Positions 1 through 8,747 of a stretch of DNA of 8,747 nucleotides are shown here, piece after piece. A program made the translations under genes and the position numbers. This stretch comes from a virus (lineage: Duplodnaviria; Heunggongvirae; Uroviricota; Caudoviricetes), in the IMG/VR virus record IMGVR_UViG_2778261151_000014, one strand, 5' to 3'. Every line of letters starts with the position of its first letter. Within the stretch, counting starts at the first letter, position 1. The notes under the pieces are model-generated. The model was not told the DNA's origin and searched no databases. It saw only the letters and a list, made by a program, of their open reading frames with translations.

Positions 1-148
1 CATTGAGCGACATAATCTGAATCTGAGACAACATCTGGCAAGGCTGGGACGGAAGTCACTGTCGTTCTCAAAATCGGTGGAGCTGCATGACAAGGTCATC
101 GGGCATTATCTGAACATAAAACACTATCAGTAAGTTGGAGTCATTACC
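1..148 (+). mobile_element. IS1-family insertion sequence, right-hand end (partial; element continues beyond window start)
   Basis: Frame-2 translation of 2..133 ends ...[43 protein letters not shown], which matches the C-terminus of IS1 InsB as I recall it. Terminal sequence 126..148 (revcomp GGTAATGACTCCAACTTACTGAT) is an IS1-type inverted repeat and matches 8671..8693 at 20/23 positions. Several differences from the canonical IS1 I remember suggest an iso-IS1 variant. Confidence 0.8.
2..133 (+). CDS. insB: IS1 transposase InsB, C-terminal fragment (5' end outside window)
   Basis: Open frame from window edge to TAA at 131..133; translation ends ...[32 protein letters not shown]. Not in the ORF track because it is truncated by the window edge. 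Confidence 0.75.
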
Positions 149-181
149 TAACCTCGTAATTAAATTTTGTTTAAACGTTAA

Positions 182-2179
182 TTAAATGGTTTTTTTACGT
201 CTGTTCTGTTCCAGAATATCCAGCGAACGATTCAGATATTCATCACGTTCAGTTTCGTATTCATCATCACGCTCCTGATTCTTCACCCGTTCCGTGTTAC
301 CCACAGGCCGGAAAATACCAACAACCCGTGATTCTGGTGCTTCAGGTTCGGCTATCTGCGGCAGCAGCTCTGCCACTTCCAGTGCATCCATTTGTTTCTG
401 TGCCTTAATCGCTGCTTTCGTCGCAGATTTCAGTTGTTTCTGGCGGCGGCGATATTCACGGCCTGCCGCAGCATCATTAAACGCAACAGGTGCCAGACAT
501 TCCGCTTCACAGATAAACCGACCGTCCAGGGTGTAGCAATAAACCGTGCTGTGTAACTGTTGTGGATCAAATCTGACCACAACTTTTTTCACTCCGGCAT
601 TCATTAACGCCATGTTGTAATAAACGTTTTTCGCGCCTTTAAGGGAGCCGCCAACTTTAAGCGCAAACTCGCCTTTACGTGAAACGTTCACCGCCTCGGC
701 AGGCAGTAACAGCATCCGTTTTTGCTCTTCGGTAGGCTTACGCACAATCGTTCTGGCGTATTCATGCTCAAAAACGTCATCAAACGAAAGTTTGCCTCCG
801 CACATTTCTGTTTCACGGCCTGTTCTGGCATTGAACATCGCCACACCTTCGGCAAGGGTTTTCAGAAACAGCTCTGCATCAACAGCACGGTCGCCATAGT
901 TATCAGGTTTTGCCTGCGGATTTGGCCCCGTATATGCGCCAGCCAGTGCCGGATGCTTATCAACGTATTCCTCAAGCCCACCAACACCGAAAGCACGTTC
1001 AACAGGTTTTGCCTGGCCCCAGCCTTTACCGGCAACAACGCTTGTCCAGTGCATTTTCGCACCCATCAGTAAAAACAACCCCTTTGGATCGTCCTCTTTT
1101 ACCTTAAAGCGGTAGCGATTGGGCGCGCCTCCCGTCAGCCATTTATTCGCAGCACCACGGGTGTTATCAATGGTGATGTGAAAATCCTCCGGGATACCGT
1201 AGCGAGTCACAACATCCATGAACGAGAGGCGAATTGAATCAATGTTCTCGCTCACATCGCAGCGCCAGCCCAGAATTTTTCGGGTTTTCACATCCTGCCA
1301 GAACCATGTTTTCGGGCGGATCACATCACCGTTAAACCAGCGTACAAAGACGTTATGCAGATAACCGTCGCCGTTGATCCACTGCATGGCGTCCAGGTGT
1401 TCCACAGTTCGCTGCTGTGCCGGTATCAGATGCATCAGTGCATGTTCACCTTCACGACAGGCAACAACCATTGCCTCGTCCAGTTGCTGAATCCGGCGAA
1501 ATGCCGTGGCACGGGAGGGAATACTCCAGCCATGCTCGCGGGCTGCCAGTTCCAGACGCTCATAACATTTGCGGAAGGCGGGTTTTTCCGGTCGCAGATA
1601 ATCTGCAATCAGAAACTGCCAGGCATCCTCGTCAAATTCACTTTTGTGAACATTGCGACGAGATGCACCACGTCCATCAACAAGTGCAGCCGCCCAGTCA
1701 GGCTTCGCAAACTTCTGTACCTGGTAATACTTGTCCCGCAAAGTGGATGCGCTGACCTGATAATGTCCTGCAACGGTCGCAAAAGCCGTTTTTGTTGAAA
1801 TCCCCTGGTTCAGCATTTCGTCTGCAGCCTGAACCGCAGGCAACCATTTTTCAGCAAGTCTGCGCTGGGAATCGCTGGCGTTATCCCATTTGCTCCACAG
1901 TGCCTCACGATCGTAATCGTGCGCTTCCAGCGTGGGGCGGGCGATTTCAAAATACCCCTGGCTTGTTTCTATTTGCTCAGATTTTAATAACAACTCAGCA
2001 CGTGCTGCCGCTGGTAGAACTGATATATGAAATTCCAAAGCCTTTGAACCCGTACGCTTGCGACGTAGTTCTGGATGATTGGCTGCAAGCTTTTCAAGAT
2101 TGCGGCGAATACTCACCTCATGTTTAGGAAAGCATGACATTCCTACGCATTCTTGCGCTGTTACCCAATGGGTTAACAT
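182..2179 (-). CDS. A: Mu-family DDE transposase A (D108-type N-terminal domain)
   Basis: Track ORF 182..2209 starts at TTG. The in-frame ATG at 2177..2179 gives [11 protein letters not shown]..., which aligns with the Mu A start MELWVSPKEC and lies just after the ner stop (sequence ATGTTAA). From about residue 70 onward the protein is near-identical to Mu A as I recall it (..[37 protein letters not shown]..). Catalytic DDE contexts are intact ([23 protein letters not shown]) and the C-terminus is ...EQNRRKKTI. The first ~65 residues differ from Mu. Confidence 0.93.
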
Positions 2180-2400
2180 GATGTTTTCTCCATATACCGA
2201 GAAGGCCAAATCTGGGCTGGTTCCATATCCAAATATCTAGCAATGATTGCTTCGTATCGTGGTATATGGCAGCGAAATACGTTACGCATAGTGTCAGGCT
2301 TTAAGCCTGCCTCTCTGGATAATTGAGATAGTGTCTTCCCCTTCATACGAACAGCAGCCTTTATCTGCTCTGCGTGCCAGTCTTGGTTTTTTGCTGACAT
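2173..2400 (-). CDS. ner: Ner-family DNA-binding regulator of early transcription (Ner/Nlp family)
   Basis: 75-aa ORF with ATG at 2398..2400 and RBS AAGGA upstream. Shares motifs with Mu Ner ([18 protein letters not shown]) at roughly half identity. Sits immediately upstream of A on the same strand. Confidence 0.88.
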
Positions 2401-2569
2401 TCTGCGATCCTTACTCTCTTAACGTTTTCGGTAACTGATACCAGCTACCGCTATCGGGAAAAACGATAGCGCAGAAAAATGCGCATTTCAAGAGCTATGC
2501 GCATTTTTATTTTAACCAATGCAAATCAAAGAATTCTGTAAAATTCTTTATATAACAGAGAGATTGAGC
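2401..2569. promoter_or_regulatory. Divergent early/repressor control region (operators, candidate Pe and Pc promoters)
   Basis: Intergenic region between divergent ner (-) and c (+). Contains perfect palindrome AAATGCGCATTT (2477..2488), further copies of GCGCATTT(TTAT) at 2497..2510 and 2603..2614, inverted repeat CGCTATCG-N7-CGATAGCG (2449..2471) and inverted repeat AAAGAATT-N6-AATTCTTT (2528..2549). Candidate Pe on minus strand: -35 TTGAAA (plus 2486..2491), 17-bp spacer, -10 TATCGT (plus 2463..2468). Promoter assignments are inference. Confidence 0.55.
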
Positions 2570-3178
2570 ATGACAGGTGAAAAAGAAAGCAAAAATACAG
2601 AGCGCATTTTTATGCCCTCGGAAATAATGCGTTTCAAGGAACGCCTTGAAGAGGCAATGAATGGAGAATCAAGCCGGGCGTTTGCAGCTAAGTGCGGACT
2701 TTCTGATGGGGTTATCAGAAACTACCTGTCTGGCAAGACATACCCGTCTTTAGATCGATTAGCACAAATAGCCTACGCAACAGGGCGTCCAATAGAGTGG
2801 TTTATCCAAAGTCAGAGCATGCCAATGGTTGAGCATAAAAATACTCAAGAGAATAAAAATCCTCAACCTGACCGCAGCACATTGAAAACTAAACTGATCG
2901 CAATTGTCGAATTGTTAGAGGACAAGGAACTGCATTCTGCGATTGAGTTGTTCAGAAAGAAAGGATTTGAAGCTCTTATGCCTGAGATTTTTTCTTCCGA
3001 TGATTCCATCCAGGCTGATTTGCAAGGTATTTCGCAGCAAACCTTACAAACAGCCAAAATGCTTGAATCATTACCAACAGATACTCGTAAAGAGATTTTG
3101 TCAAAGTATGGTATTTATGAACAGGAAGGTCTTGTAGCTCCTTCACAAGAACCACAAGATGTAAAAAAAGCCGTATAA
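2570..3178 (+). CDS. c: Mu-family immunity repressor c (heteroimmune, non-Mu DNA-binding region)
   Basis: Track ORF starts at ATG 2519, but ATG 2570 (MTGEKESKNTERIFMPSEIM) aligns with the Mu c start (MKSNFIEKNNTEKSIWCSPQEIM as recalled) and has a weak GAGAG upstream. C-terminal ~100 aa resemble Mu c (..KEILSKYGIYEQEGLVAPSQEPQDVKKAV). Central region (..SSRAFAAKCGLSDGVIRNYLSGKTYPSLDRLAQIAYATGRPIEWF..) looks like an HTH and differs from Mu c. Start is uncertain; ATG 2612 is another candidate. Confidence 0.85.
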   Translation: MTGEKESKNTERIFMPSEIMRFKERLEEAMNGESSRAFAAKCGLSDGVIRNYLSGKTYPSLDRLAQIAYATGRPIEWFIQSQSMPMVEHKNTQENKNPQPDRSTLKTKLIAIVELLEDKELHSAIELFRKKGFEALMPEIFSSDDSIQADLQGISQQTLQTAKMLESLPTDTRKEILSKYGIYEQEGLVAPSQEPQDVKKAV

Positions 3179-3344
3179 CAACCATGAACCAGCTAAAACA
3201 TACTTCACCTCACATAATCACACATGTAACATACCTAAACGGCATGAGCTGATTTGTGATATGAGTCATTTGGTTACAGCCTGGTTGTTATCGGTTTTGA
3301 ACGTTTTTTGAAGCTGTTATTGAAATGATTTGCAGTGTTTTTGT

Positions 3345-3750
<406 letters not shown>

Positions 3751-3751
3751 A

Positions 3752-3780
3752 GGTTTTGCCTGCGAATGCAGTAACAATCC
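3752..3780 (-). promoter_or_regulatory. bgl RAT (ribonucleic antiterminator) target of BglG
   Basis: Minus sense GGATTGTTACTGCATTCGCAGGCAAAACC, matching the bgl RAT sequence as I recall it and abutting the terminator 5' arm. Confidence 0.65.
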
Positions 3781-3827
3781 AGTCATTTATTAATGGTTTT
3801 TATAACGAACATCCAGGTTCGGAAATT

Positions 3828-3889
3828 AATTTAATTGCGTGCAGAGAAAATAGCAATGCGCTATTGATAAAAATATGACCATGCTCGCA
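3828..3889 (-). promoter_or_regulatory. bgl operon promoter with upstream CRP site
   Basis: Minus sense -35 TTGCTA (plus 3851..3856), 17-bp spacer, -10 TAAATT (plus 3828..3833), giving a predicted start near 3820 and a ~130-nt leader. CRP-like site TGCGA-N6-TCATA at plus 3874..3889, centred about 61 bp upstream of the predicted start (class I position). Confidence 0.5.
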
Positions 3890-3934
3890 GTTATTAACTT
3901 TGTGTAATTTTAGGAATTTATAAAGTTATATATA

Positions 3935-3967
3935 ACAAATCCCAATAATTAAGTTATTGGGATTTGT
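3935..3967 (-). terminator. phoU/pst operon terminator hairpin
   Basis: Perfect 14-bp inverted repeat ACAAATCCCAATAA / TTATTGGGATTTGT with 5-nt loop, 8 bp downstream of the phoU stop, followed on the minus strand by AT-rich sequence. No strong U-tract, so efficiency is uncertain. Confidence 0.6.
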
Positions 3968-3975
3968 CTGGTGAA

Positions 3976-4701
3976 TTATTTGTCGCTATCTTTCCCCGCC
4001 AGCAGTTTATCCAGCTCATCGCCACCGACGTGACGGAAATCCTGCCCCTTCACGTAGTAGAAGATAAACTCACAAATATTCTGGCAGCGGTCGCCAATAC
4101 GTTCGATAGAACGCGCGCAGAACAGCGCAGTAAGTACGCTCGGAATGGTACGCGAATCTTCCATCATGTAGGTCATCAGTTGACGAACAATACCTTCGTA
4201 TTCCTGATCGACTTTTTTATCTTCACGATAAATACGTACCGCTTCGTCAATGTCCATCCGCGCGAACGCGTCCAGCACGTCGTGCAGCATCTGGATGGTA
4301 TGACGGCCCAGCGACTCCAGACTTACCAGCAACGGCTGATGCTGCTGGGAGAATTTCTCCAGCGCAGTACGGCAGATTTTGTCCGCCACGTCGCCAATAC
4401 GCTCCAGCTCGGCAATGGTTTTACTGATCACCATAACCAGTCGCAGGTCGCTCGCCGTCGGCTGACGTTTGGCGATAATGCGCACGCAGGCTTCATCGAT
4501 CGCCACTTCCATCATGTTGACGTTCTTGTCGCCTTCGATCACGCGCTTCGCCAGATCGCTGTCCTGGTTATGCATCGCGGTGATTGCATCAGAAAGCTGC
4601 TGCTCCACCATGCCGCCCATGGTCATCACCTGCGTGCGGATACTTTCCAGTTCGGCGTTGAACTGGCCGGAAATATGTTTATTAAGATTGAGACTGTCCA
4701 T
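3976..4701 (-). CDS. phoU: PhoU, phosphate signalling/regulatory protein
   Basis: Translation from ATG 4699..4701 is [25 protein letters not shown]... (241 aa), matching E. coli PhoU. AGGAG RBS upstream. Track ORF began 6 codons earlier at a TTG. Confidence 0.97.
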
Positions 4702-4715
4702 AACGCACTCCTGAA

Positions 4716-5575
<860 letters not shown>

Positions 5576-5579
5576 AGTG

Positions 5580-7432
<1,853 letters not shown>

Positions 7433-7444
7433 TTACTCTTCAGT

Positions 7445-7506
7445 TAAACGCGTTTACAAAGTCATTTTGTAATGCCGGATGCGGCGTAAAACACCGTACC
7501 CGGCCT
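7445..7506. repeat. pstS-pstC intergenic palindromes and REP-like element
   Basis: 12-bp palindrome TAAACGCGTTTA (7445..7456), hairpin TTACAAA-N5-TTTGTAA (7454..7472), and REP-like GCCGGATGCGGCGTAAAACACCGTACCCGGCC (7474..7505). Probably a transcript-stabilising or attenuating structure after pstS. Confidence 0.5.
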
Positions 7507-7515
7507 GGAGTTTTA

Positions 7516-8574
<1,059 letters not shown>

Positions 8575-8606
8575 TCATAAAGCATTGTTTGTTGGCTACG
8601 AGAAGC

Positions 8607-8662
8607 AAAATAGGACAAACAGGTGACAGTTATATGTAAGGAATATGACATTTTTATGACAG
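8607..8662 (-). promoter_or_regulatory. pstS promoter with tandem Pho boxes (PhoB binding sites)
   Basis: Minus sense CTGTCATAAAAATGTCAT (plus 8645..8662) and CTTACATATAACTGTCAC (plus 8623..8640): two 18-bp Pho boxes, each with 7-bp direct repeats. -10 TATTTT at plus 8607..8612. Confidence 0.85.
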
Positions 8663-8670
8663 AAAGGAAT

Positions 8671-8747
8671 GGTAATGCTGCCAACTTACTGATTTAGTGT
8701 ATGATGGTGATTTTAAGGTGCTTGCGTGGCTTCCATTTCCATCAGAT
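8671..8747 (+). mobile_element. IS1-family insertion sequence, left-hand end (partial; continues beyond window end)
   Basis: GGTAATGCTGCCAACTTACTGATTTAGTGTATGATGGTG... is an IS1 left inverted repeat and leader. A GTG at 8726 opens MASISIR..., like the InsA start. Same orientation as the IS1 end at 1..148. Confidence 0.8.

Follow-up and report, generated by a model that had tools for sequence, protein, structure and literature searches.

An 8,747-nucleotide stretch of DNA (the window) is an entire short-read Escherichia coli contig with IS1 repeats at both ends, and holds what is left of a natural Mu-like prophage of the E. coli chromosome, namely its left end (attL-c-ner-A). Most probably an IS1 had inserted in bglG, a Mu-like phage then entered the end of this IS1 and the DNA from B to attR was afterwards lost in an IS1-associated, one-step adjacent deletion. 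The event is ordinary genome decay, a known kind of IS-associated deletion in which engineering played no part. A first-pass annotation of the window had weighed an IS1-mediated deletion against a synthetic linker in an engineered mini-Mu-like construct; the deletion alternative holds, and the synthetic-linker alternative falls together with the premise that the A-B spacer of Mu-like phages is very short.

The Prophage Remnant

The Mu-type transposase gene A (182-2179, minus strand) is intact, encoding 665 amino acids followed by a TAA stop at 184-182, and its product contains the domains HTH_Tnp_Mu_1, HTH_Tnp_Mu_2, DDE_2 and Mu-transpos_C, the set specific to Mu. Window positions 149-1972 are 97% identical in DNA to Mu A. 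Upstream lies ner (2173-2400, minus strand), an open reading frame of 75 amino acids in the position of Mu ner, with a PF13693 HTH_35 match in the assembly GCA_900448845.1 (L005; see below), followed by the repressor gene c (2570-3178, plus strand; 202 amino acids), which is a gene call with a weak HTH_3 match in L005. The Mu left end (attL) occupies 3179-3517 on the minus strand with the terminus TGTATTGATTCACTTGAAGTACGAAAAAA ending at 3517; positions 3059-3517 are 94.6% identical to Mu nt 1-458, the terminus reading TGTATTGATTCAC at 3517, and the matches of many natural prophages to the window end at this same base. The divergent c and ner-A early region beside the left end has the gene order of Mu, such that domains, gene order and left end all place the element in the Mu family.

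The immunity module (1974-3058; c, ner and the first ~69 codons of A) had no DNA match to Mu or D108 and is 98.4% identical to the SE11 prophage, being of the SE11 type and not of the Mu or D108 type. It is a third immunity type, differing from those of Mu and D108, in which the N-terminal domain of A has been swapped along with the repressor. Compared with Mu, D108 and the SE11 and W prophages, the early region (c-ner-A-B in these phages) has the same gene order, the A DNA is 97-98% identical and the left end matches. Unlike all four, the remnant stops 5 bp short of the B ATG and has lost all that follows, as far as attR. Where a complete element has B, the late genes, attR and the 5-bp target duplication, the spacer in the window and in L005 is followed by IS1, and the IS1 by bglG. 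The first-pass annotation had reported no B gene at the locus, in keeping with which no B-like open reading frame was found in the list for the window.

The same prophage was also found at another chromosomal site, beside the ycj and psp genes, in two further records (L006 and L007; GCA_012769215.1 and SRR3020572; positions 8660-12031). In these the A protein is identical to that of the window prophage and the DNA is 99.94% identical over 3372 bp. The occurrence at a second site indicates that the phage is or was mobile.

The A-B Spacer and the Rare-Cutter Sites

The 33 bp following the A stop (149-181, minus strand) correspond to Mu nt 3320-3352 and make up all but the last 5 of the 38 bp that separate A from B; every base agrees with Mu and D108 and with the prophages of SE11 and W. 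Read in the minus sense from 181 to 149 they are TTAACGTTTAAACAAAATTTAATTACGAGGTTA, in which there is no ATG, GTG or TTG. The layout described in the first-pass annotation is borne out by the sequence in every coordinate, with the A stop at 182-184, 33 bp without a start codon, the IS1 terminus at 148, a PmeI site (GTTTAAAC) at 169-176 within the wild-type spacer and a PacI site (TTAATTAA) at 178-185, likewise wild-type sequence and overlapping the A stop codon. The accompanying premise, which had B beginning only a few bp past the end of A in the Mu family, was mistaken. The Mu genome annotation puts the end of A at 3319, the ribosome-binding site of B at 3346-3350 and the start of B at 3358, giving a spacer of 38 bp; in D108, where A ends at 3267 and B starts at 3306, the spacing is as in Mu, and the A-B gap of the SE11 and W prophages is also 38 bp.

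Alignment of the window minus strand with Mu, D108, SE11 and W revealed that the 33 bp after the stop are identical in all five sequences, both restriction sites included. Past GAGGTTA the four intact elements continue with TTCAG-ATG (the start of B), whereas the window continues with GGTAATGACTCC (IS1). The break is located at Mu nt 3352/3353, 2 nt past the B ribosome-binding site and 5 nt short of the B ATG, and because it falls before the ATG the lack of a start codon in the 33 bp is to be expected. The GenBank records M11195 and M64097 (wild-type Mu) and SfMu also contain these 33 bp together with the two sites. In a megablast search of window positions 1-4000 against complete E. coli genomes, the matches to natural Mu-like prophages all start at base 149, as do the matches to the window of Mu, D108, SfMu and other Mu-like phage records. 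The A+T content is 79% in the spacer and 54% in the remnant as a whole. The PacI and PmeI sites belong to this AT-rich wild-type Mu spacer and are no feature of the joint.

In favour of a synthetic PacI-PmeI linker belonging to an engineered mini-Mu-like construct stands the presence of two 8-bp rare-cutter sites within 17 bp, each occurring once in the window against a chance expectation of 0.17 (PacI) and 0.20 (PmeI) per window. The finding of the identical 33 bp, sites included, in wild-type Mu, D108 and SfMu and in the SE11 and W chromosomal prophages is the very result that the first-pass annotation had named as making the sites coincidental. In addition, the window contains no vector, marker or attR sequence, the joint occurs in no PLSDB plasmid record, and the neighbouring genes (bglG, phoU and pstBACS) are ordinary chromosome. 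Engineered mini-Mu elements also keep attL-c-ner-A but retain attR together with markers or vector DNA, neither of which is present at this locus, and neither a non-natural linker, nor marker or vector DNA, nor a pair of Mu ends was found. The probability left to a synthetic origin is negligible, and the suspicion of engineering raised by the adjoining sites is removed by their being natural in the Mu A-B spacer.

The Shine-Dalgarno sequence of B, GAGGT (151-155, minus strand), which maps to the Mu ribosome-binding site at 3346-3350, has been orphaned 2 nt from the IS1 end. On the minus strand (window 132-155) it now stands 7 nt upstream of an ATG in the IS1 inverted repeat, from which an open reading frame of 5 codons (MTPTY, then a stop) runs; this is probably meaningless.

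Deleted and Intact Forms of the Prophage

An exact look-up of the A protein identified a 4.37-Mb contig of GCA_900448845.1 (L005) that matches the 8,747-base window with a single mismatch, at window position 2597 in the repressor gene, where the window has A and L005 has G; the resulting repressor variant is known from one contig only, which is 8,747 bp long. The order in L005 is glmS, IS1, a 269-bp fimbrial-gene fragment, IS1, pstSCAB, phoU, the bglG 5′ fragment, the Mu left end, c, ner, A, the 33 bp, IS1 (768 bp) and then the rest of bglG, bglF, bglB and bglH. A 5.05-Mb contig of GCA_900449095.1 (L016) has the same A-IS1 and IS1-bglG joints. These two assemblies bear on the possibility, also raised in the first-pass annotation, that B is truly contiguous with A and that the IS1 end was joined to A by the assembler, for which it can be said that the window is a short-read contig beginning and ending in IS1 repeats and that sibling genomes have B beside A. 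Such a misassembly is very improbable, as two independent contigs (4.37 and 5.05 Mb) from two other assemblies have the very same joint at an internal position, with the rest of bglG following the IS1, and the window itself has 148 bp of IS1 across the joint.

The same bglG-GG-Mu left end junction is present in other assemblies (L008-L012, L017 and L018), several of which end in the same IS1 upstream of pstS. The set of intact siblings comprises at least these seven assemblies and more than 15 similar contigs, which are 99.98-99.99% identical to the window over the stretches covered (L008 covering 149-8747), and in all contigs of the set the sequence stops inside the prophage, short of attR. 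In the intact siblings A is followed by 38 bp and then by B (312 amino acids; AAA_22 and Phage-MuB_C domains), with kil and gam next in the longer contigs, while the A protein is identical between the deleted and intact forms. With deleted and intact forms being nearly identical, the deletion occurred within one clone and is recent. The wild-type spacer and the presence of B in the intact siblings uphold the first reading of the first-pass annotation, in which B and the remaining prophage were removed by an IS1-mediated deletion and the restriction sites are natural AT-rich DNA.

IS1, bglG and the Order of Events

The first 148 bases of the window (1-148, plus strand) are the right end of an IS1 copy, covering the 3′ portion of the transposase reading frame as well as the terminal inverted repeat ending ...GGAGTCATTACC, and are 100% identical to three IS1 copies in L005, each of 768 bp with a PF03400 DDE_Tnp_IS1 gene. 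Base 148 is the final base of the IS1 right end, the contig beginning inside the repeat. The complete copy at the joint (L005 12032-12799) is 768 bp long with a PF03400 gene, and its two ends agree at 20 of the first 23 positions.

On the other side of the prophage, the window carries a 5′ fragment of bglG of 57 codons (3520-3690, minus strand); the reconstructed gene is 100% identical to bglG of K-12 MG1655 and encodes a CAT_RBD domain. To the left of the prophage bglG runs ...AGTCATGAACTG, followed by GG and then by TGTATTGATTC (the Mu left end), while to the right of the joint IS1 the sequence ...CATTACC is followed by ATGAACTGAACGGG. When the GG, the Mu remnant, the IS1 and one copy of ATGAACTG are taken out, the 600-nt stretch that results matches bglG of K-12 MG1655 and others at 100% identity in a single alignment. 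From this unbroken match it follows that ATGAACTG is an 8-bp duplication and that the GG is foreign. One copy of this IS1 target duplication in bglG lies at 3520-3527 (minus strand) and its partner immediately after the IS1 (L005 12800-12807). The two foreign bases (CC at 3518-3519, GG on the minus strand), on whose removal bglG is perfectly restored, equal the first two bases of the IS1 end (GGTAATG...) and are read as a piece of it that became separated on Mu insertion.

The bases flanking the joint IS1 directly (ACGAGGTTA and ATGAACTGA) are not a duplication, the second copy of ATGAACTG being on the far side of the Mu remnant. Duplications of 8 bp are usual for this IS1: a neighbouring identical copy (L005 1705-2472), which is a simple insertion, is flanked by the 8-bp duplication GATAAAGC. 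Adjacent deletions that retain the IS and have no target duplication are a common outcome of IS activity (PMC11708052).

These observations suggest a nested history. In the first step IS1 would have inserted into bglG with the 8-bp target duplication ATGAACTG. In the second, a Mu-like phage would have inserted into this IS1, 2 bp inside its right end, with a 5-bp duplication CTGGG that would have left GG beside attL and, 3 bp past attR, restored the IS1 end in full. The MuA target consensus is 5′-CYSRG, covering eight pentamers, and the putative duplication CTGGG fits it (PMC7350765). In the third step the IS1 would have stayed in place while ~33 kb (CTG, attR, the late genes, the early genes and B) was lost outward from its right end. 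The intact lysogen is predicted to have the right junction ...TTTTTCGTGCGCCGCTTCA-CTGGG-TAATGACTCCAACTTACTG. The attR-CTGGG-IS1 pattern was unmatched in viral contigs, GTDB representative genomes and JGI metagenomes, collections in which the control junctions of the lineage itself are equally absent. The state before Mu insertion, with IS1 in bglG at ATGAACTG, had no example in complete E. coli genomes, where IS1 was found at other bglG positions only.

The joint could also have been produced had the IS1 come last, with Mu inserting into an intact bglG, IS1 inserting into the spacer and a deletion running from the left end of the IS1 through attR into bglG, which would likewise give the arrangement A-spacer-IS1-bglG. 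This order leaves the non-native GG on the attL side of bglG unexplained, together with the exact repeat of ATGAACTG across the IS1; for ten bases to agree by chance at two independent end points, the odds would be about 1 in 10^6. A deletion into bglG is also unable to regenerate sequence from the far side of the prophage. This order of events can hardly be considered a serious contender.

IS1 has repeatedly targeted the beginning of bglG. In E. coli EC6622 (L014, NZ_CP096587.1; 1675-2443) there is an independent bglG::IS1 insertion 24 bp downstream, with the 8-bp duplication AACTCTTA, and in several more complete genomes an IS1 occupies another position within or close to bglG.

The Mechanism of the Deletion

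The break lies in the very AT-rich A-B spacer, 5 bp short of the B start codon, where GAGGTTA was joined to GGTAATGACTCC. IS1 prefers AT-rich targets. In one step, such an adjacent deletion would have come about by intramolecular transposition of the resident IS1 into the spacer, with the attR-IS1 arrangement proposed above for the progenitor. The lost segment would be ~33.3 kb, a size taken from Mu (36,717 bp) and the SE11 prophage (~36.65 kb) and not from this lineage.

A route in two steps, which also starts from an IS1 in bglG next to attR, would have had a second IS1 enter the spacer in the same orientation, after which homologous recombination of this copy with the first removed the DNA from B to attR. 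It yields exactly the observed product, and by its product alone is the same as the one-step route. The IS1 copies of the genome, being identical over 768 bp, are good substrates for recombination, and where target duplications are missing, recombination between copies of an IS is commonly responsible (PMC11708052). Such a route needs two events where one suffices, and in none of the at least seven intact sibling contigs was IS1 present in the A-B spacer. On these two grounds the one-step adjacent deletion is favoured as the probable mechanism, with the two-step route a distinctly less likely one that keeps a minor share of the probability.

Comparison with Other Deletions and Significance

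Adjacent deletions mediated by IS1, IS903, IS10 and IS150 similarly keep the IS and one flank, acquire a new second flank, have no target duplication and lose the intervening DNA (PMC11708052). The deletion described here does not differ from them in principle, its particular feature being the nested history in which Mu lay 2 bp inside the end of the same IS1. The result is a clean nested series, with the states before and after the deletion found in one E. coli clone; this pair may serve as a textbook example or as a sublineage marker for the clone, and has little import beyond annotation.

The laboratory Mu X mutants, reportedly described by Bukhari and colleagues in the 1970s, are said to be defective Mu cts prophages with IS1 in or near B. 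They are non-killing, non-replicating prophages that retain c, ner and A, and are simple laboratory-selected IS1 insertions with both Mu ends. As in these mutants, the early operon has been hit by IS1 at B, but in the present case ~33 kb including attR is gone and the strains are natural or collection isolates. It is conceivable, if rather doubtful, that the deletion was selected as a defusing of the prophage and is a natural counterpart of the Mu X mutants. Were this so, the loss of B, kil and the lytic genes would remove killing on induction, the retained repressor would confer immunity to Mu-like phages of the third immunity type, with an intact A retained too, and selection would account for the near-absence of mutations in c, ner and A of the deleted strains. 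A very recent neutral deletion fits the data equally well.

The IS1 Copies Bracketing the pst Operon

The last bases of the window (8671-8747, plus strand) are the left end of another, identical copy of IS1; it stands 114 bp upstream of pstS, and the contig ends inside the repeat. This IS1 lies 8 bp from the first CTGTCATAAAAATGTCAT, which we take to be a Pho-box-like repeat upstream of pstS. In L005 the IS1 upstream of pstS has no target duplication, and its other end cuts a fimbrial-subunit-like open reading frame (MKRNIIGGAFTLASLMLAGHALAEDGVVHF..., L005 2577-2741), such that the region between glmS and pstS (L005 2473-3509) looks like the site of a second IS1-associated deletion. The IS1 sequences at window positions 1-148 and 8671-8747 (L005 12032-12799 and 2742-3509) are identical direct copies bracketing pstSCAB-phoU-bglG′-Mu′ (8.5 kb). 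The bracketed pst block resembles a composite transposon in its layout, an arrangement in which the pst operon is liable to be deleted or amplified.
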